A DNA stretch of 64,000 bases from Ferrovibrio sp. (GTDB taxonomy: Bacteria; Pseudomonadota; Alphaproteobacteria; Ferrovibrionales; Ferrovibrionaceae), in contig NZ_PEKV01000003.1 of the NCBI RefSeq assembly GCF_002796975.1, forward strand, positions 14,870 through 78,869. The letters are read 5' to 3'. The translations under genes were made by a program, and so were the position numbers. The notes under the pieces were generated by a model. It was not told where the DNA came from, made no database searches, and worked only from the letters and a program-made list of their open reading frames with translations. This document shows, one piece after another, positions 19,751 to 28,889 of this stretch (position 1 is the stretch's first letter; each line of letters opens with the position of its first letter).

Positions 19751-22561
19751 TTACGCGAGATTCTGCTGGCCGCCAGTGCCAGCCCGCATGCCATGCAAAA
19801 AAGCCGCCGTCTCGGACACCGCATCCCGGATGCCGAGGCGTTTCACCTCGACGCTGGCCGGGAATGCCGTCAGCAGGCGCGACGGCAGCTGCGCATCCAG
19901 CACGACGAAGACGCCGTAATCGTCGGCGCGCCGCAGCAGACGGCCATAGGCCTGCTTCAGTTTCAGGCGCGTGAGAAGATCGTCATAGGCCTGGCCGCCG
20001 AAGGCCGCCTTGCGCGCCTTGTGCAGCAGGTCGGGTCGCGGCCAGGGCACGCGGTCGAACACGGCCAGCCGCAAACTCGCACCCGGCACATCGACGCCGT
20101 CGCGCATGGCATCGGTGCCGAGCAGGCAGGCATGTTCCTCGGCACGGAAGATATCGACCAGCGTGGCATTGTCGAGCGGATCGACATGCTGCGCGTAGAG
20201 CGGCAGCCCGGCGTCGGCTAGCGGCTTGAGGATGCGCTTCTGCACGGCGCGCAGGCGGAAGATCGCCGTGAACAGCCCGAGTGCGCCGCCATTGGCGGCA
20301 AGGAACAACTCGCGATAGGCGGCGGCCACCTGGTCCATCGCATCGCGCCGTACATCGGTGACGACAAAAATGCGTGTGCGGTTGGCGTAATCGAACGGCG
20401 AGGGGAAAGCGGCACGCCGCGCCGGCTGCGGCAGATGGCGGGCGCCGCTGCGGATCTCGGCGCTGTCCCAGGCAAGCTCCGGCGAAGCATCGGCCTTAGC
20501 CGGTGCGATGTCGCGCAAGGTGGCCGAGGTGACCGCCACACCATGCGCGGGCTTCAGCACGGCAGCGGCAAAGGGCAGCATCGGATCGAGATAGTGGCGA
20601 TAGAGGCCGAGATCGAGGTCGCGGCCGTCGATGCGTTCCAGCCCGAACCAGTCGACGAAGGTCGACGGCGTTTCGGTCTGCAGGTCGAGCAGCATGCTGC
20701 GCCAGGCATCCAGCGTCAGCTTTCGCCGCAGCAGGCCGCGCAGCGCACCTTCGATGCGCGAGCGCGTCGCGGTATCCAGTTCGGCGGTTTCATCCGCCAG
20801 CATGTCGCTCAGGGCTTTGGTCAGCGTGTTGACCGGTTCCAGCACGCGGTCGATGCCGCTGGCAAACTCCATCGCGGCATCGATCAGGCCGTTGACGGGT
20901 TCCTTGGTCGGGCATTCCAGACCGTAAGGCGAGTCCGGCTGCGCGCTGCGCGCGAGAATCTGTTGCCGCGCCTTGTTCAGAAATTTCTCGCCCTGGCCAA
21001 CCGGATTGCCGTCCGCGATGCGTGCCAGCCAGCCTTCGCCCGGCAGGCAGCGCGCCATCTCCACCACGGCTTCCAGCGCGGTACGGCCGCGTTCGTCCTG
21101 CGCCACCAGATCGCCGATGCGATTGGCGATGCCGCGGGCGCGGCTGCGCCGTCCGCCTTCCGGTCCGCGCAGCCAGCGCCGCAGGTCGACGCCTTCCATG
21201 CCGGTCAGGTGAGCGGCGAAGGCGCCGTCAGCGGCTTCAAACAGGTGATGGCCTTCGTCGAACACATAACGCAGCGGCTTCTGCGCATCGTCTTCTCCCC
21301 CAGAACTTCCTATGGCGGCCTGAATCATGACCAGCGCATGATTGGCAATCACCATCTCGGCCTTGCGCGATTTGCGCACGGCCCGCTCGATGAAACATTT
21401 GCGGTAATGCGGGCAGGCGGCGTGGATACATTCGCCGCGCTGGTCGGTCAGACCCAGGGTGCGGTTGCGGCCATGCAGGTCGGCGGCCCAGGCGGGAAAA
21501 TCGCCGCCGGCCAGATCGCCGTCGCGCGTCGCACCGGCCCAGCGCGCAATGAGCGACAGCGGCACCATATCCTGCGGCCGCGCCGCGCCGCCCTGCGTCG
21601 CATCTTCCAGATTCAGCAGGCAGAGATAATTCTCGCGGCCCTTGCGGATGACGACGCGGCCTTGCTTTTCCGCCGGATCGGGAAACAGGCGGTCGAGTTC
21701 GTGATCCAGCTGCCGCTGCAGGTTCTTGGTATAGGTCGAGAGCCAGACCGTGCCGCCATTCTTCTCGGCCCAGACGCTGGCCGGCGCGATATAGCCCAGC
21801 GTCTTGCCGATGCCGGTGCCGGCCTCGGCCAGCACCATCTCGGGCATGCCGATCACTTCGCGCGGCGCAAAGGCCTGCGCCACGGTGGCGGCGTAGTCGG
21901 CCTGCGTCTCACGCAGTTCAGCGGTGGTGCCGAGCAGCTGCGCAAGTCGCTCACGCGCTTCAGAGGGCGACACCGATTGCGTATCGGGCGGCGGTGGCGG
22001 CGCGTAATCCACCCATTCGGGCAGTTCCTGCCAGATATCCAGCCCGCCAAAACCGCCGCTCGGCGCCTGCGTTGCTTCCGGCCCGAGGCCGAGCAGCAGA
22101 TAGGGCGCCCAGGGCCAGCCGGATTTGTTCAGCAGCTGCGCCAGCCGCATCGACCGGCGCAACGCACGCGGCTGCTGGCGCGGCAGGTCTTCCAGCAGCA
22201 TCTGGGCCGCGTGATGCAGATACTGCACGGCCTCTTCGTCATCGGCGGCGTCGAGGTTGAGCCGTTCGAGCAGGCCATGCGGCGTCGGCAGGCAGAAGCG
22301 CGCCGGCCGCACGAAGGCAAACAGGTCGAGCAGGTCGAAAGCCATGAAGGGCTCGACGCCGAGCTTGGCGGCGGTGGCCTTGAAATGCACCAGCAGCGGC
22401 GGCGTGGCGCGGGCGCGGCGCGCGGCGGCATCGGGCGACAGCTTTTCCAGGTGACCGTTCTCGAACCACCAGGCAACACCGCCGCCGGCCACCAGCGCCG
22501 GCAGTCGACCGAGCGCTTGAGAAAGATTGCTGCCGATACCTTCGCTACTCTGCATTGCCAT
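19751..22561 (-). CDS. DinG/YoaA-family ATP-dependent Fe-S DNA helicase
   Basis: EAGTGIGKTLGY, KGRENYLCL, Cys cluster ECIHAACPHYRKC, FDEGHH, TSATL, DGVDVPG, QAYGRLLRR. Confidence 0.93.
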   Translation of the reverse strand: MAMQSSEGIGSNLSQALGRLPALVAGGGVAWWFENGHLEKLSPDAAARRARATPPLLVHFKATAAKLGVEPFMAFDLLDLFAFVRPARFCLPTPHGLLERLNLDAADDEEAVQYLHHAAQMLLEDLPRQQPRALRRSMRLAQLLNKSGWPWAPYLLLGLGPEATQAPSGGFGGLDIWQELPEWVDYAPPPPPDTQSVSPSEARERLAQLLGTTAELRETQADYAATVAQAFAPREVIGMPEMVLAEAGTGIGKTLGYIAPASVWAEKNGGTVWLSTYTKNLQRQLDHELDRLFPDPAEKQGRVVIRKGRENYLCLLNLEDATQGGAARPQDMVPLSLIARWAGATRDGDLAGGDFPAWAADLHGRNRTLGLTDQRGECIHAACPHYRKCFIERAVRKSRKAEMVIANHALVMIQAAIGSSGGEDDAQKPLRYVFDEGHHLFEAADGAFAAHLTGMEGVDLRRWLRGPEGGRRSRARGIANRIGDLVAQDERGRTALEAVVEMARCLPGEGWLARIADGNPVGQGEKFLNKARQQILARSAQPDSPYGLECPTKEPVNGLIDAAMEFASGIDRVLEPVNTLTKALSDMLADETAELDTATRSRIEGALRGLLRRKLTLDAWRSMLLDLQTETPSTFVDWFGLERIDGRDLDLGLYRHYLDPMLPFAAAVLKPAHGVAVTSATLRDIAPAKADASPELAWDSAEIRSGARHLPQPARRAAFPSPFDYANRTRIFVVTDVRRDAMDQVAAAYRELFLAANGGALGLFTAIFRLRAVQKRILKPLADAGLPLYAQHVDPLDNATLVDIFRAEEHACLLGTDAMRDGVDVPGASLRLAVFDRVPWPRPDLLHKARKAAFGGQAYDDLLTRLKLKQAYGRLLRRADDYGVFVVLDAQLPSRLLTAFPASVEVKRLGIRDAVSETAAFLHGMRAGTGGQQNLA

Positions 22562-22595
22562 CGCGTCAGGTTTGTCTGCGCTTCAATACTTGTTT

Positions 22596-22671
22596 GTCAT
22601 GCGCGGACTTGATCCGCGCATCCCATTTTTGTCGCCTAAAATGGGATCCTCGGGTCAAGCCCGAGGATGAC
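22596..22671. repeat. REP-like palindromic dyad (CCCATTT/AATGGG subtype)
   Basis: gtcatgcgcggacttgatccgcgcatcccattt ... aatgggatcctcgggtcaagcccgaggatgac. Confidence 0.85.
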
Positions 22672-22681
22672 GATTTTTATC

Positions 22682-23317
22682 TTACTGCGCTGCCCAGACG
22701 ATGCGAGCGATCCAGGCGATGTCCTGCACGTCGAAGCCGCGCTCAGGGTAAGCAGGATTGAAGGAGGCGAGTTCGATGCGGGTGAGCGTGCGGCGCGACA
22801 GCAGTTTGCACATCACTTCGCCCTGCGTGGTCTTGGCGATCACGCGGTCGCCGCGGCGCACGCTGGCGGCTGGCGATACGATCACCACATCGCCGTCGCG
22901 ATAGACCGGCAGCATGCTGTCGCCGCTGATCTCCAACGCATAGGCCTGGCTGTCGCCGATCTCGGGGAAGGGCACCTTCTCCCAGCCTTCGCCGGTCGGG
23001 AAACCGGCATCGTCGAAGAAGCCGTCCTTACCGGCCTGGGCCAGGCCGATCAGCGGAATGCGCTGCGTGCTGCGCGGCACGCCGCCGCTTTCGCTCAGCA
23101 GGTCCATGAATTCCGGCACGCTGGCGCCGGTCGCCTCGATCACCTTGGCGATCGATTCCGTCGACGGCCAGCGCTGCTTGCCGTCGCGCGAAATGCGTTT
23201 CGACCGATTGAAGGTCGTTGGATCGAGACCGGCTTTGCGGGCGAGACCGGAGGCGGTGAGGTCGTAGCGTTCGGCAAGACCGTCGAGGGCAGCCCAGATG
23301 GCGCGATGTGTCAGCAT
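22682..23317 (-). CDS. HTH + S24 peptidase (CI/LexA-like) repressor
   Basis: N-terminal HTH (SGLARKAGLDPTTFN), Ala-Gly cleavage site in IPLIGLAQAG, catalytic GDSM Ser and downstream Lys (VMCK). Confidence 0.9.
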   Translation of the reverse strand: MLTHRAIWAALDGLAERYDLTASGLARKAGLDPTTFNRSKRISRDGKQRWPSTESIAKVIEATGASVPEFMDLLSESGGVPRSTQRIPLIGLAQAGKDGFFDDAGFPTGEGWEKVPFPEIGDSQAYALEISGDSMLPVYRDGDVVIVSPAASVRRGDRVIAKTTQGEVMCKLLSRRTLTRIELASFNPAYPERGFDVQDIAWIARIVWAAQ

Positions 23318-23385
23318 GGGAAGATTGTCTTGCAAAACGGGTCATTTGCATACAGGAATATTATCTGATTTTTGCTTTGACATGA

Positions 23386-23400
23386 GAACATAATGGGAAT
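23386..23400 (+). promoter_or_regulatory. Putative alphaproteobacterial LexA (SOS) box overlapping a TTGACA promoter
   Basis: GAAC-N7-GAAT (one mismatch to GAAC-N7-GAAC), 3 nt after TTGACA at 23377-23382. Confidence 0.55.
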
Positions 23401-23466
23401 TACATCTTGTCGTTAGGCGCGAAAGTCGCCTCTGTTCTGCTCGCCTCGGGTCTGGATGTGAAACAA

Positions 23467-23937
23467 ATGAGCGAAAATCCAGCGAAACCCGGACTTCAAT
23501 CGCCAGCTTCGGCTGCAGTCGCTCCCGCCAGACCGGAACGGGCCGTCGTGGTCTTTGCCGAAGACATCCGGCTGCCGAAGCTGCGCCGGCTCAAGCCGGG
23601 CTTCCGGCACTGCTATGCCTATCTGGCCATGCCGGGCGGCTGGGTCGGCATCGATCCTCTCTCACATATGATTGAGATAAAAGGGTTTTATGACTGGCCG
23701 GTGGATGCCGATCTGGCGGCGCATCTGCGCAGCCTGGGACACTGCGCCTTGACCGTTCCGGTTCTGGCGGCGCCCAAACGCCTGGCGCCGCCGCTGCCGT
23801 TTTCCTGTGTCGAGGTGGTCAAGCGTCTGATCGGCCTGCAGAGCTGGCGGATCAGAACACAATGGGAACTATTTCTGCATTTACGGAAAATATCCCTTGA
23901 TTATGGATTTGTTTTGTTCTATATCTGGTTTTCATAG
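23467..23937 (+). CDS. Hypothetical protein, possibly a permuted papain-like (His-before-Cys) fold
   Basis: KPGFRHCYAY ... PFSCVEVVKRLIG; first gene of the phage-like unit. Confidence 0.65.
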   Translation: MSENPAKPGLQSPASAAVAPARPERAVVVFAEDIRLPKLRRLKPGFRHCYAYLAMPGGWVGIDPLSHMIEIKGFYDWPVDADLAAHLRSLGHCALTVPVLAAPKRLAPPLPFSCVEVVKRLIGLQSWRIRTQWELFLHLRKISLDYGFVLFYIWFS

Positions 23938-23952
23938 GAACAAATAGCAAAC
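23938..23952 (+). promoter_or_regulatory. Second putative LexA box, upstream of the portal operon
   Basis: GAAC-N7-AAAC within an AT-rich stretch that also contains GTTCTATATCTGGTTT (23916). Confidence 0.5.
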
Positions 23953-23986
23953 ACTTCTGGTCGATCCGCGAAAGGACTTTGCCGCC

Positions 23987-24229
23987 ATGGGTGGGATTTT
24001 CAGCTCTCCGTCGCCGCCGCCACCGCCTCCCGCGCCGCTGCCGCCCCCGGCCGAGCCGCCCGAGAGTGCCGCCGAACTGGCCGAGAAGGCGGCCCGCGAC
24101 CGTCGTCGTCGCGCCCAGGGTGAAACCATCGCCACCTCGTGGCGCGGCGTGAACGACACCGACACCGAAACGCTGGGCGGCGGCAGTTCGACCGCCAGCC
24201 GCAGCGGCAAACGCCTGCTGGGCGAATGA
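23987..24229 (+). CDS. Small Pro-rich hypothetical protein preceding the portal gene
   Basis: MGGIFSSPSPPPPPP ... RRRRAQGETIATSWRGV ... KRLLGE; resembles the small gene that precedes T7-type portals. Confidence 0.7.
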   Translation: MGGIFSSPSPPPPPPAPLPPPAEPPESAAELAEKAARDRRRRAQGETIATSWRGVNDTDTETLGGGSSTASRSGKRLLGE

Positions 24230-24255
24230 GAGCGCAGATGTCTGGCAAGACCCGC

Positions 24256-24753
24256 ATGACAACGACACAGGAAGAGTCGCGGAAAGATTCCGCAACTGAT
24301 CCTCTGCATCCTGACGCGCTGCGTCGCCGCTACGACCGGCTGCGCAGCCAGCGCGGCAGCTGGGAAGCGCTGTGGCAGGACTGCTACGACTATTCGCTGC
24401 CGGCGCGCCGTCCGAATGCCGGATCAGGCAGCACTACAGGTCGTGTCGCTGAGCGCCTGTTCGATGCGACGGCGGCCGATGCGGCCGAGCAGCTGGCGGC
24501 CACCCTGCTGGCGCAGCTGACGCCGCCGTGGTCGCGCTGGTTTGCCTTCCAGCCCGGTCGCGACGTGCCGGAAGACCAGCGCGGCGCCATGGCGAGCGAA
24601 CTCGATCGAACTGCTGAACTGCTGCAGGCGCAGTTCGACCGCAGTAATCTCGCCGTCGATCTACGCGCTTGCCCCGCGCCGCGAGATCGGCGAGCAGGCA
24701 CCGTTCCTTGCCGATTTCCATCGTCTCGAACTGCCGGTGCTGGATCAGCATGA
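24256..24753 (+). pseudogene. Truncated T7-type head-to-tail connector (portal) protein
   Basis: SWEALWQDCYDY, RLFDATAADAAEQLAATLLAQLTPPWSRWF, QFDRSNLAVD. Portal-like sequence ends at about 24660, then an out-of-frame tail runs to the stop at 24753. Confidence 0.8.
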
Positions 24754-25558
24754 CGAAAGCCGCTGGCCGGAACGTTTTCCGCGCGAAAGACTCGACAGCA
24801 TCCGGCGCCGCACCGGCGCGGCGCGGTTCGCTGCGCAGATGCTGCTGCAGCCGGTCTCCACGGAAGACGCGCGCCTCGATCCCGACCGCATTCCGCTTTA
24901 CGGCGGCGAGCTGGAGGTCGAACACCTGAGCGGCGACCGCATGCTGCTCAGCATCGAGGGCAAACGCATGGTCTCGGCCAGCTGCTGGTGGGATCCCGCC
25001 TTCGGCATGCCGCGCCATGGCGACGGCAGCGTGATCGCTGCGGTCTTTGGCGACACCGATGGTGGCTACTGGCTGCATCGCATCCAGTGGCTGGAGCAGC
25101 AGCCCGGCAGCAGCCTGGATGCCGCCAGCCAGCTTTGCGCGCAGGCCGCCGGCTTCGTGAAGGCATTGCATCTGCCCTCCGTGCGGCTGGAAACCAACGG
25201 CCTTGGCCGTTTCCTGCCCGGCCTGCTGCGCCGCGCGCTCAGTGCTGCCGACTGCGGCGCCGGCGTGGTCGAGCAGACCAGCCGCCAGTCGAAAACCGCC
25301 CGCATCCTGCAGGCTTTCGATGTGGTGCTGGCCGCCGGTGCATTGCAGGTGCATCGCAGCGTCGACGACACGCCCTTCTTTGCCGAGATGCGCGAATGGC
25401 GCGCCGACGGACGCAGCCGTGACGATGGGCTGGATGCGGTCTCGGGCTGCCTGCTGGCTGAGCCGGTGCGCTTCGGCCTGCTGCCGGCGCGGCCTGCGAT
25501 GCCCGACTGGCGCGGCGGTGCCGGGCAGCATGTGGCGAAAACGGAATTCGAAGTGTGA
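24656..25558 (+). pseudogene. 5'-truncated phage terminase large subunit (end of ATPase domain plus RNase H-like nuclease domain)
   Basis: SIYA, SRWPERFP, FAAQMLLQP, WWDPAFG..GDGSV, LETNGLG, K.ARI, RDDGLDAVSG. No start codon or Walker A region upstream in this frame. Confidence 0.8.
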
Positions 25559-25570
25559 AGGGAGGCCGTC

Positions 25571-25867
25571 ATGATCGGACAATTTGCCATCGATCTGATG
25601 TGGTGGCTCAGCATGGTGGAACTGCCGGCGCTCGGCGGCCTGTTCTGGCTGATCCAGCACCAGCGCGACCGCCAGGAGCAGAATCTGCAGCAGATGCAGG
25701 CCGAACACCGCGCCGCCATCGGCGCGACGCGTGCTGCGCTTTCAGACTTTAAATTGGACGTCGCGCAGCGCTACGCCTCGATCGCGCATCTGAAGGATGT
25801 CGAGACGCGGCTGACCGAACATCTGCTGCGCATCGAGGCCAAACTCGGCCAGCCGGTCCGTCTGTAG
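25571..25867 (+). CDS. Membrane-anchored coiled-coil protein of the lysis region
   Basis: N-terminal hydrophobic segment (WWLSMVELPALGGLFWLI) followed by a coiled coil; GGAGG RBS. Confidence 0.7.
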   Translation: MIGQFAIDLMWWLSMVELPALGGLFWLIQHQRDRQEQNLQQMQAEHRAAIGATRAALSDFKLDVAQRYASIAHLKDVETRLTEHLLRIEAKLGQPVRL

Positions 25868-25878
25868 GGGAGGGTGAC

Positions 25879-26334
25879 ATGCGTATCGACAGACTGCCAG
25901 CCGATCCGGCCGCCCGTGCGGTGGCTTGCGGAGACCATGCCTTCGCCCTGGATGTGCTGGCGCGTACGCTGTGGGGCGAGGCGCGCGGCGAAGGCCGCGA
26001 CGGCATGCGCGGTGTGGCGAATGTCGTGCTCAACCGCGCCGCCCGTCCCGGCTGGTGGGGCCGCAGCGTGGCGGAGGTGTGTTTAAAGCCCTGGCAGTTT
26101 TCCTGCTGGCTGGAGAGCGATCCCAATCGCGCGAAGCTGCTCGGCGTGGACGGCCGCGACCGTGCATTTGCCACGGCGCTGTCGATCTCGGTCGATGCGC
26201 TGGCCGGCATCCTGCCGGACTACACCTTCGGCGCCACGCATTACCACGCGCTCGACTGCGAAGTGGCATGGAGCAAAGGCCGCACGCCCTGCGCGGTAAT
26301 CGGCCGGCATGCCTTTTACAACGACATAGACTGA
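25879..26334 (+). CDS. Cell wall hydrolase (SleB/Hydrolase_2 family), putative endolysin
   Basis: LARTLWGEARGEG..GM..VA.VVLNR, KPWQFSCW, GATHYHA, IGRHAFY. Confidence 0.88.
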   Translation: MRIDRLPADPAARAVACGDHAFALDVLARTLWGEARGEGRDGMRGVANVVLNRAARPGWWGRSVAEVCLKPWQFSCWLESDPNRAKLLGVDGRDRAFATALSISVDALAGILPDYTFGATHYHALDCEVAWSKGRTPCAVIGRHAFYNDID

Positions 26335-26343
26335 GAGACGACA

Positions 26344-26748
26344 ATGCTCGACAAACTGCTGACCGCACAGATCGCCACGCCGATAGAGGCCATCGGCAAT
26401 GTCTTCGACAAGCTGTTCACGTCCGATGACGAACGCGCCCAGGCCGAGGCCGTGCTGGAAAAACTGCGCCAGCATCCGGCCGAACTGCAGGTCGAGCTGA
26501 ACAAGATCGAGGCAGCGCATCACTCGGTCTTTGTCGCCGGCTGGCGGCCTGCCGTGGGCTGGATCTGCGCCGCAGCTGTCGGCTGGGCCTATCTCGGCCA
26601 TCCGCTGTTCCTGTGGGCGGCGGCGCTCTGGTCGCCCGGCCTGCAGCCGCCTGCCATCCATACCGACAGCCTTTTCGAACTGGTGCTGGCCATGCTCGGG
26701 ATGGCGGGCCTGCGCAGTTTCGAGAAGGCGGCGGGGAAGCGGCGGTGA
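26344..26748 (+). CDS. 3TM holin (GTA-type holin family)
   Basis: IEAAHHSVFVAGWRPAVGWIC ... LVLAMLGMAGLRSFEK. Confidence 0.85.
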   Translation: MLDKLLTAQIATPIEAIGNVFDKLFTSDDERAQAEAVLEKLRQHPAELQVELNKIEAAHHSVFVAGWRPAVGWICAAAVGWAYLGHPLFLWAAALWSPGLQPPAIHTDSLFELVLAMLGMAGLRSFEKAAGKRR

Positions 26749-26759
26749 GAAGCCTCCGT

Positions 26760-26825
26760 CGTCATGCCGGGCTTGACCCGGCATCCCATTTTTTAATGGG
26801 CCTCCGGCTCAAGGCCGGGGTGACG
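26760..26825. repeat. REP-like palindromic dyad (CCCATTT/AATGGG subtype)
   Basis: cgtcatgccgggcttgacccggcatcccattttttaatgggcctccggctcaaggccggggtgacg. Confidence 0.85.
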
Positions 26826-26854: not shown

Positions 26855-27199
26855 ATGACCGTGATCTACCGCATCGTCTCGGCAGCCGACTGGCAGGCGG
26901 CACAGGCGGCCGGCACCTTCGCCGGCACCGCGCATGACCTGCGCGACGGCTTCATCCATTTCTCGACAGCGAAACAGGCGGCCGAAACCGCGGCGAAGCA
27001 CTATGCCGGCAAGACCGACCTGCTGCTGCTCTATGTGCGCGACACCGATGTGGAAGCCCCGTTAAAGTGGGAAAGGTCGCGCAACGACGATCTCTTCCCG
27101 CATCTCTACGGCCAGCTTCCCGTGTCTGCCGTGTATCGCATCGATCCGCTGCCGCTGGGCGCCGACGGCCGGCATGTCTTCCCGGCGGATATGCCATGA
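26855..27199 (+). CDS. DUF952 family protein
   Basis: IYRI, DGFIHFST, LKWE.SR...LFPHLYG.L. Confidence 0.9.
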   Translation: MTVIYRIVSAADWQAAQAAGTFAGTAHDLRDGFIHFSTAKQAAETAAKHYAGKTDLLLLYVRDTDVEAPLKWERSRNDDLFPHLYGQLPVSAVYRIDPLPLGADGRHVFPADMP

Positions 27200-27834
27200 G
27201 CGGCCCGGGAAATGTTCTGGTTCGCGACCCATACTGGGGTCAGCCGCTGATCTCCTACACCGTCGTGCAGATGCTGGAGCCGGCGGCGCGCGACACCTGC
27301 GTGGAGAGTCTGCGGCAGGTGTCCGCGATTGCCGGCGGCGCCGAACATCTGCTGATCGCGCCGGCCGAGACGTTTCATCTCTCGCTCTATGCCATCGCGC
27401 CGGTGCGCTCGGATTTCGACAAGGATGCCTGGTGGCAGGTGCATGGCCAACAGGCGCTGACCGTGTTCCGCCGCTGGTGCGGCACGCAGCCGGCAGCCGT
27501 GCTGAAATTCCGCGAGCTGCGCGTCACGTCTACTGCGGTGATCGCGGTGGCCGAGCCGCATGAGGCGGTCTGGAGCCTGCGCCGCCTGCTGCGCGCCGAA
27601 GTGCCGCAGCCGCCGGGTGGCACGCCGAATTACGACATGATCCACATGACCCTGGCGCGTTACGCGCAGCCTGACAGACTGCCAGCGGACTTCGCCGCCC
27701 GCGTTGCGGCCTTGCCGCTCACGCTCGATGTGCGGCTGTTCGAACCCACGCTGGTGCGTGAAACCGCCTATCCGCTGCTCGGCGGCAAACCGGTCGAGAC
27801 GCATGTGCTGAAAACTCCGGAGACGGCGGCATGA
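27196..27834 (+). CDS. 2H phosphoesterase (LigT-like) superfamily protein
   Basis: Two HxS/T motifs (PAETFHLSL, MIHMTLAR) about 90 aa apart; ATGA overlaps on both ends. Confidence 0.65.
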   Translation: MSGPGNVLVRDPYWGQPLISYTVVQMLEPAARDTCVESLRQVSAIAGGAEHLLIAPAETFHLSLYAIAPVRSDFDKDAWWQVHGQQALTVFRRWCGTQPAAVLKFRELRVTSTAVIAVAEPHEAVWSLRRLLRAEVPQPPGGTPNYDMIHMTLARYAQPDRLPADFAARVAALPLTLDVRLFEPTLVRETAYPLLGGKPVETHVLKTPETAA

Positions 27835-28889
27835 GCCTCTATCGCAACCTGATCTTTCCGCTGGTGCGCAACATCGATGCCGAAACCGCGCATCGCGCCA
27901 CGCTGAGGCTGCTGAGCTGTGCGCCGCTGCCGCCGCTGCTGCCGGACGATCCGGTGCTGGGGACGACGCTGTTCGGCAAACCCCTGCCCAATCCGGTCGG
28001 GCTGGCCGCCGGCTTCGACAAGAATGCCGAAGTGCCCGATGCCATGCTGCGGCTCGGTTTCGGCTTTGTCGAGGTGGGCGGCATCACGCCGCAGCCGCAG
28101 ACCGGTAATCCGCGTCCGCGTGTGTTCCGCCTGCCCGAAGACCGCGCGGTGATCAACCGCATGGGTTTCAACAACGACGGGCTGGAGGTGACGGCGTCGC
28201 GGCTGCAGGCGCGCAAGGGCCAAGGAAAGCAACTGGGCGGTGTTGTCGCCGCCAATCTCGGTGCGAACAAGGACAGCGCGGATCGTCCGGGCGATTATGC
28301 GATCTCCTATGAGCGGCTGGCGCCGCTGGTCGATTTCGCCGTGGTGAACGTGTCGTCGCCCAATACGCCGGGCCTGCGCAACCTGCAGGGCCGCGAGGAG
28401 CTGGCGGCATTGCTGGCGCGGCTGCAGCCGCTGCATGAAAAACTGAAGACGCCGCTGCTGGTCAAAATTGCCCCCGACCTTGCAGAAGAAGATATCCGCG
28501 ACGTCGCCGACCTGGCGCTGCAATTCCGGCTGGATGGTATCATTGCCACCAACACCACGGTGACGCGGCCGGAGACTTTGCGGAGCGGCAATCGCGGCGA
28601 GACCGGCGGGCTCTCGGGCGCACCGCTGTTCGAGCTTTCAACAATGGTGCTGAAGCAGCTCTACGGCTTCACCGGCGGCAAGGTGCCGCTGATCGGGGTC
28701 GGCGGCATTGCTTCGGGCGCGCAGGCCTATGCCAAGATCCGCGCCGGTGCCTCGGCCGTGCAGCTGTATTCGGCGCTGGTCTACGAAGGCCCCGGCCTGG
28801 TCGGCCGCATCAAGCGCGAACTGGCCACGCTGCTGAAGCGCGACGGGTTCCGCAGCGTGGCGGACGCGGTGGGCGCAGACGTTAAGTAA
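27831..28889 (+). CDS. pyrD: Quinone-dependent dihydroorotate dehydrogenase (class 2)
   Basis: NPVGLAAGFDKN, GNPRPRVFRL, INRMGFNN, NVSSPNTPGLR, VKIAPD, GGLSG.PL. Confidence 0.98.
   Translation: MSLYRNLIFPLVRNIDAETAHRATLRLLSCAPLPPLLPDDPVLGTTLFGKPLPNPVGLAAGFDKNAEVPDAMLRLGFGFVEVGGITPQPQTGNPRPRVFRLPEDRAVINRMGFNNDGLEVTASRLQARKGQGKQLGGVVAANLGANKDSADRPGDYAISYERLAPLVDFAVVNVSSPNTPGLRNLQGREELAALLARLQPLHEKLKTPLLVKIAPDLAEEDIRDVADLALQFRLDGIIATNTTVTRPETLRSGNRGETGGLSGAPLFELSTMVLKQLYGFTGGKVPLIGVGGIASGAQAYAKIRAGASAVQLYSALVYEGPGLVGRIKRELATLLKRDGFRSVADAVGADVK

Follow-up and report, generated by a model that had tools for sequence, protein, structure and literature searches.

Predicted LexA boxes in both rightward promoters of an inherited T7-like module divergent from an alphaproteobacterial S24 regulator gene

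We analysed the control region between a LexA/CI-type regulator gene and a divergent phage-derived gene cluster in a 64,000-nucleotide stretch (the window) from Ferrovibrio sp. (contig NZ_PEKV01000003.1; window G000:C26:14870-78869 of a 4.23 Mb genome with 63% G+C). The regulator combines a helix-turn-helix (HTH) with a Peptidase_S24 domain and is called S24 below. The cluster is an ancient, vertically inherited T7-like head-tail-lysis module, present in this genome as a remnant. Four sites of the host LexA type lie in the two rightward promoters of the module, PR and P2. The control region (23318-23986) is best read as belonging to a T7-like module that is held by LexA and opened by DNA damage, with S24 as a probable second sensor; we put the probability of this sequence-based reading at roughly 0.7. 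Host LexA would keep the module off directly, with box 1 in the PR spacer and boxes 2 to 4 bracketing or covering P2, which would drive a small gene, the former structural genes and the lysis cassette. Upon DNA damage, RecA filaments would promote LexA self-cleavage, and PR and P2 would open. S24 would probably sense RecA likewise and autoregulate through a TTCCTA-type site, and it may lock the module a second time. The circuit of this genome would yield only the product of the first open reading frame (ORF176), the small protein and the holin/endolysin pair.

The SOS box of the Alphaproteobacteria, as described in Caulobacter, is GTTC-N7-GTTC (PMC9578287). Exact GAAC-N7-GAAC sites were listed over the whole genome, and a position weight matrix was derived from 25 of the intergenic ones, leaving out the window's own site. 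These intergenic boxes have in common an extended direct repeat, tgAGAACAT-N5-GAACATat. The four sites of the control region score 16.2 to 19.7 bits with this matrix (Table 1, with ranks among approximately 8.4 million positions on both strands), and boxes 1 and 4 each depart from GAAC-N7-GAAC by one mismatch. Canonical SOS genes were located by family search and their promoters scored in the same way, giving 25.4 bits for lexA, 24.9 for imuA, 22.1 and 13.9 for the two sites of recA, and 20.0 for umuD, so that the window boxes fall within the range of these four genes. The recA box of this genome is itself GAAC-N7-GAAT, the same variant as box 1. Within 673 bp there are four sites of 16 bits or more, whereas 5,000 dinucleotide shuffles gave 0.006 on average and in no case two, and the genome's own intergenic density predicts 0.05.

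A preliminary description of this DNA had reported two LexA boxes, GAAC-N7-GAAT at 23386 beside TTGACA at 23377 and GAAC-N7-AAAC at 23938. All three elements are found at these positions, but the number of boxes has to be raised to four, the sites at 23855 and 23905 having been missed. Its view that both rightward promoters of the module carry boxes of the host type is borne out by their match to the genome's own SOS boxes. Elsewhere in the genome, a HigB/Gp49-like toxin gene (G000:C35:348744) and a radical-SAM, SplB-like gene (G000:C33:447338) are each preceded by a strong LexA box; genes of both kinds are known SOS members in other Alphaproteobacteria.

Box 1 overlaps by 3 nt the -35 element (TTCTCA) of the leftward S24 promoter, as located by a consensus promoter scan. 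A separate consensus scan covered the sequence from 23900 on and so did not take in P2, which was read from sequence and conservation; the -35 element of P2 is TTGACg in relatives, and its layout is kept in the genus and in other orders. Box 3 lies over the P2 spacer, and box 4 is placed 13 nt past the -10 element, with 35 nt from its end to the small-gene ATG at 23987. On the plus strand, no terminator-like site was found between P2 and 26764, just past the holin gene, so that P2 transcripts should cross the deletion scar of the module into the lysis genes. The S24 promoter region, a candidate operator of S24 itself, contains in addition an inverted repeat, TGCAAA-N8-TTTGCA, at 23332-23351. 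An operator other than LexA's and common to PR and P2 could not be called, the shared elements being the A-tract/UP-like CGGAAAATAT and loose GGAAT similarities. Separately, the 5' leader of ORF176 has a TGTTC at 23432-23436 that is invariant in the genus and corresponds to half of a minus-strand LexA-type box. At the same place, two more distant relatives (loci L032 and L033) have a full minus-strand box, which is their strong one (20-24 bits).

The boxes are conserved within the genus. Sixteen of the 17 other loci have box 1 at an unchanged distance from the S24 ATG (+69), with a GAGC variant in one. Its GAACAT and GAAT cores are conserved and its five spacer bases are variable, a pattern characteristic of a protein-binding site. 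Boxes 2, 3 and 4 are in register across the genus. Box 2 is nearly invariant; box 3 reads GAAC-N7-GTAC in many relatives, scoring up to 23.5 bits at the same place; and box 4 keeps GAACA in 17 of 18 sequences, with AAAC in most of them.

The case of box 2 is particular, as the 3' end of ORF176 overlaps both this box and the UP/-35 part of P2. The box lies inside the codons for R-T-(P/Q)-W-E-L (R-T-Q-W-E-L in this genome), which are rare ones: AGA (1.4% of Arg codons in this genome), ACA (5.8%) and CAA/CCA (6-8%), so that the joint choice has a frequency of about 3e-5. More distant ORF176 orthologues encode L-T-P-W-Q-L in common codons and have no box there. This difference indicates that the DNA of box 2, beyond the peptide, is constrained in the genus, and shows that a binding site can persist inside a gene through rare codons.

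Beyond the genus, one genome per species was scanned, and at least 598 species proved to have an S24 gene; of these, the 80 best were examined as loci. They include Azospirillum, Magnetospirillum, Telmatospirillum, Defluviicoccus, Methylocystis, Ancylobacter, Bradyrhizobium and Brucella oryzae. In 23 of these loci, ORF176 and T7-like genes are divergent from S24, and the other 57 are without the module. A box of at least 14 bits, on either strand and 65-95 nt from the S24 ATG, is present in 15 of the 23 module loci versus 4 of the 57 module-less ones (Fisher p = 2e-7, related genomes not being independent). One of the four box-positive module-less loci ends at a contig edge, and Azospirillum loci counted as negative still hold, by eye, GAAC-N7-AAAC. 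Several distant loci also have a box beside their P2. The boxes are thus recurrent in other orders as well as conserved in the genus, which answers favourably the scan of orthologous promoters that the preliminary description had proposed. Direct-repeat boxes whose orientation changes between orders suggest that the boxes were turned over while selection for LexA control continued. Two further loci, L107 (Acidisphaera) and L110 (Acidocella), have perfect LexA boxes beside S24 with no T7-like module detected, small genes of unknown kind being divergent instead.

These comparisons also bear on the nature of the factor that would bind the GAAC repeats, which could be operators of S24 or of another module-specific protein rather than of LexA. 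The 81% identity of the surroundings of boxes 1 and 2 over 26 nt is reminiscent of phage operator copies, and the putative S24 motif TAGGAA overlaps in sequence with the AGGAAC form of the LexA half-site. However, the same 11-bp-periodic direct repeat precedes lexA, recA, umuD and imuA in this genome, and it is missing from the promoters of module-less S24 genes in 53 of 57 loci. Moreover, the N-terminal domain of S24 is an Xre-type HTH and not the winged helix of LexA, and the flips of box orientation between orders fit repeated recruitment of a host factor. We consider operators of S24 or of another module factor very improbable. Repression of PR and P2 by LexA and induction of both by DNA damage are in our estimation quite probable. 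The analysis establishes the sites, their match to the genome's own SOS boxes and their conservation; LexA binding and its consequences, as well as every role given to S24 below, are inferred.

The S24 protein matches the transcriptional repressor family PHROG 4 (1.2e-27), and its Xre-like HTH hit (1.8e-4) lies below the cut-off of that profile. As the preliminary description had noted, it has an Ala-Gly site and a Ser/Lys dyad. These residues, A95-G96, S134 and K171, belong to a full set of self-cleavage motifs (PLIGLAQ-A95-G96, GD-S134-M and VMC-K171-LL). When aligned to the LexA and UmuD of the same genome, S134 and K171 coincide with the catalytic Ser and Lys of these proteins. The Ala-Gly, Ser and Lys residues are kept in 81 of 81 orthologues examined; among more distant relatives, a few carry R, Q or G in place of the Lys. 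A104-G105, which MAFFT aligned to the LexA cleavage site, was rejected as the site, since position 104 varies and A95-G96 is conserved in a PL-x-G-x-x-x-AG context.

The phylogenetic distribution of S24 departs from that of a phage repressor. Among 301 evenly sampled Alphaproteobacteria, 71 have S24 as a single-copy gene and 36 have an orthologous portal gene (at least 50% identity); more than half of the S24-bearing genomes are without this portal. A prophage CI gene is confined to its element, and S24 is not. The earlier view of S24 as the CI-like repressor of the module is thus supported as to its cleavable-type motifs and not as to its belonging to the module, the gene being single-copy across the Alphaproteobacteria and also present where the module is absent. 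It follows that any action of S24 on the module is deduced from conserved adjacency.

Upstream of S24, a TTCCTA motif just after the -10 element is found in 58 of the 80 loci versus 20 of 1,600 background windows, accompanied by an inverted TAGGAA partner in 14 of the 58. It occurs with and without the module, and its equivalent in this genome is AATATTCCTG at 23350-23359. A TTCCTA-type site of this kind is a candidate operator of S24 itself. With the conserved motif set and this promoter element, S24 is probably a RecA-responsive, autoregulated repressor.

That S24 represses the module as well has, in our view, an even chance of being true. LexA might instead control the module alone, with S24 being a host regulator of other targets that has remained its neighbour since the ancestral phage landed between S24 and DUF952-pyrD. 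The wide distribution of single-copy S24 described above would fit such a history, as would the equal presence of its TTCCTA motif with and without the module. In Rhizobiales, S24 faces DUF952-pyrD without the module, and in the window these same genes stand just past the module. A DinG-like helicase gene, which follows S24 in the window, is also downstream of it in 14 of the 80 distant loci, which hints at a module-independent DNA-damage neighbourhood for S24. On the other hand, where the module exists it nearly always stands directly divergent from S24, down to portal identities of 50-60% (approximately 30 of the 36 portal-bearing genomes), and TTCCT-like elements abut the PR -35 element in several distant module loci, as seen by eye. 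Control by LexA alone is accordingly a serious alternative, held with distinctly less confidence than a circuit in which S24 takes part as second sensor.

The gene order around the control region is given in Table 1; on the plus strand, the host genes DUF952 and pyrD come after the lysis cassette. Relatives such as G012 have 13-14 kb between two points that are fused here, encoding portal, scaffold-like protein, major capsid, tail tubular proteins A and B, fibres, a radical-SAM protein and terminase, which identifies an internal deletion in this genome. At the scar, the portal remnant consists of the first ~140 codons (PF12236 profile positions 3-121 of 489), and the terminase remnant, in another frame, is without its first ~185 residues (NF033889 positions 186-500 of 500). 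The locus is present in all 23 sampled genomes of the genus, with other deletions in other species, and the 80-residue small proline-rich gene is kept across the genus. The preliminary description had placed the module, including its lysis genes, under the boxes; this stands for the lysis cassette, which is intact, and no longer for the ~13-14 kb of head, tail and packaging genes, which are lost. Because the particle genes are deleted, the SOS output would here be at most ORF176, the small protein and the lysis cassette. LexA control is common in ordinary prophages, so that, contrary to the earlier proposal, such wiring is by itself no argument for domestication; the actual argument is vertical inheritance.

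In several species the module is interrupted at one and the same portal codon (~140), and in some the lysis cassette has gone as well, down to the 3' end of the holin gene. Most of the 23 genomes retain S24 and ORF176 together with the small gene and the portal stub. Between the helicase and S24 genes, two G+C-rich hairpins resembling repetitive extragenic palindromes (ATGCGCGGACTTGATCCGCGCAT and ATCCTCGGGTCAAGCCCGAGGAT) lie at 22599-22668, in a stretch of ~80 nt of which copies are dispersed in this genome and its relatives. An Rfam search of 22500-24300 gave no credible RNA family.

Table 1. Positions of the predicted LexA boxes, promoters and genes in and around the control region (window coordinates).
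Feature	Position	Strand	Details
LexA box 1	23386-23400	plus	GAAC-N7-GAAT, GAACATAATGGGAAT; 18.6 bits, genome rank 64
LexA box 2	23855-23869	plus	perfect GAAC-N7-GAAC, GAACACAATGGGAAC; 19.7 bits, rank 56
LexA box 3	23905-23919	minus	degenerate, poor second half, GAACAAAACAAATCC; 16.2 bits, rank 76
LexA box 4	23938-23952	plus	GAAC-N7-AAAC, GAACAAATAGCAAAC; 18.7 bits, rank 63
Rightward promoter PR	23377-23405	plus	-35 TTGACA 23377-23382; 17-nt spacer with box 1; -10 TTACAT 23400-23405
Second promoter P2	23887-23925	plus	A-tract CGGAAAATAT; -35 TTGATT 23897-23902; 17-nt spacer; -10 TATATC 23920-23925
S24-gene promoter region	23331-23368	minus	-10 GATAAT 23360-23365; invariant GAATATT core; TTCCTG at about +1
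DinG/YoaA-like DNA-repair helicase gene	19751-22561	minus	directly downstream of the S24 gene
HTH-S24 (LexA/CI-type) regulator gene	22682-23317	minus	211 amino acids; PF00717 Peptidase_S24, 8.6e-23; PHROG 4
ORF176	23467-23937	plus	156 amino acids from ATG; first gene after PR; family-less
Small proline-rich protein gene	23987-24229	plus	80 amino acids; first in P2 operon; PHROG 831, 4e-6
Deletion scar	24238-25558	plus	N-terminal part of T7-type portal joined out of frame to T7-type large terminase
Lysis cassette, intact	25571-26748	plus	98-amino-acid membrane protein, SleB-type endolysin, holin
SleB-type endolysin gene	25879-26334	plus	PF07486, 1e-17; PHROG 938
Holin gene	26344-26748	plus	PHROG 3427
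Terminator-like hairpin	26764-26794		after the holin gene
DUF952 host gene	26855-27199		beyond the module
pyrD host gene	27831-28889		beyond the module

Several observations weigh against a LexA-held module with S24 as second sensor. The regulon is not cleanly delimited by the matrix, as many neighbours of its top genomic hits are not classical repair genes; the idea of taking these hits as a clean SOS regulon was dropped, and five canonical SOS genes served as the reference. In addition, uvrA(-ssb) reaches 12.5 bits only and recN has no site. The matrix is AT-rich, as promoters are, and three of the four window sites depart from GAAC in the second half-site. Box 2, approximately 28 nt upstream of the P2 -35 element, would be at an unusual place for a lone repressor. 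As S24 exists in many module-less genomes, its adjacency to the module may be inherited synteny rather than function. Finally, the PR -10 element reads TATAAg in relatives and has drifted to TTACAT only in this genome.

This drift, together with the loss of the structural genes, is what would be expected if the boxes were relics of a circuit that has been decaying since the deletion and is no longer expressed or selected in this genome; box 3 is also degenerate in this clade, and several relatives are without the lysis cassette as well. Against such decay, nothing is broken in boxes 1, 2 and 4 or in ORF176, the small gene and the lysis genes (three in number), all of which have the same lengths as in a full-module relative, and deletion-bearing species keep box scores like those of full-module species. 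We regard relic boxes as unlikely.

ORF176, the first gene under PR, has no match in Pfam, NCBIfam or PHROGs, and its orthologues accompany the module at every locus that could be searched for them. Its invariant residues are H48-C49, C114 and E116. The AlphaFold model is confident, with a predicted local distance difference test (pLDDT) value of 82, and its matches in BFVD, down to 2e-6, are without exception uncharacterised phage proteins. In the PDB there is no significant fold match; the best hit (E 0.27) is among papain-like deubiquitinases, and each of the weak top hits is a papain-like thiol protease. That ORF176 encodes a permuted papain-like thiol peptidase is a guess, unproven because no PDB match is significant. 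In six of the loci (L030-L033, L064 and L076), the ORF176 frame is open through the P2 region and continues in frame into the small proline-rich gene, so that a fusion protein is formally possible.

On present sequence evidence, the system is a variant of known SOS-gated phage-derived systems, its twist being the pan-alphaproteobacterial S24 gene. In the CTX-phi phage of Vibrio cholerae, Quinones, Kimsey and Waldor reportedly described in 2005 that LexA acts at the PrstA promoter jointly with RstR, the repressor of the phage. The likeness would lie in a host LexA that binds directly in a key promoter beside an element-linked repressor, with induction of CTX-phi needing LexA cleavage. Unlike S24 with its full cleavage motif set, RstR is not a self-cleaving S24 protein, and CTX-phi is mobile and filamentous whereas the element described here is immobile and inherited. 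A LexA box at the promoter of a small early gene beside the repressor is also a feature of the antirepressor prophages 186 (tum), Gifsy/Fels (Ant) and N15 (AntC), and ORF176 has that position here. However, the CI proteins of those prophages are not known to be cleavable and are inactivated by the LexA-controlled product, whereas the catalytic dyad is preserved in S24; ORF176 does not resemble any known antirepressor, and the predicted LexA boxes here also cover the late promoter P2.

The PrtR-PrtN pyocins and the AlpR-AlpA-alpBCDE self-lysis pathway of Pseudomonas aeruginosa have chromosomal S24 repressors, kept by the host, that are cleaved upon damage and gate phage-derived particle or lysis genes. 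The gutted copy in the window, with regulators and a holin/endolysin, is comparable to the Alp lysis pathway. In those systems an activator or antiterminator acts and LexA boxes on the effector operons are not known as a hallmark; no homology to PrtN or AlpA was found at this module. With lambda, the S24 protein shares an HTH, the Ala-Gly site, the Ser/Lys dyad and its orientation divergent from the lytic genes. Lambda differs in having no known LexA boxes and a CI confined to the phage, S24 being single-copy and conserved in hundreds of species, many of them without the module.

Among the Alphaproteobacteria, a parallel is found in the gene transfer agent RcGTA, likewise a particle cluster of phage origin that is inherited vertically and has a tie to the SOS regulator. 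LexA acts on RcGTA indirectly through cckA (PMC6473078), and the same source mentions in-silico LexA sites in the Dinoroseobacter gene transfer agent cluster (Kuchinski 2016, as cited there). RcGTA differs in being HK97/siphovirus-like and driven by CtrA and GafA, whereas the present module is T7-like, with a divergent S24 gene and predicted LexA boxes in its own promoters. In Azospirillum lipoferum and Azospirillum sp. B510, mitomycin C releases particles with ~10 kb of DNA that is apparently the host's (PMC3899980). Such particles would fit the module and could come from it. Our literature searches found no description of the T7-like inherited module or of the S24 regulator. More tentatively, S24 might be an undescribed second SOS-responsive repressor of the Alphaproteobacteria with a TTCCTA operator, which jointly with LexA would keep an undescribed T7-like module of the gene-transfer-agent type under a conserved double lock; the Azospirillum particles could be products of this module. 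Selection would then have extended to placing a LexA box within coding sequence by means of rare codons.

For this genome alone, the outcome is modest, as the remnant might cause damage-induced lysis, or nothing. More broadly, the result points to a conserved alphaproteobacterial S24 regulator. If LexA gates the module directly, a widespread, inherited T7-like particle cluster would be triggered by DNA damage, where RcGTA is driven instead by quorum sensing and CtrA. This would offer a simple handle to induce and test the cluster in tractable relatives such as Azospirillum and Magnetospirillum.

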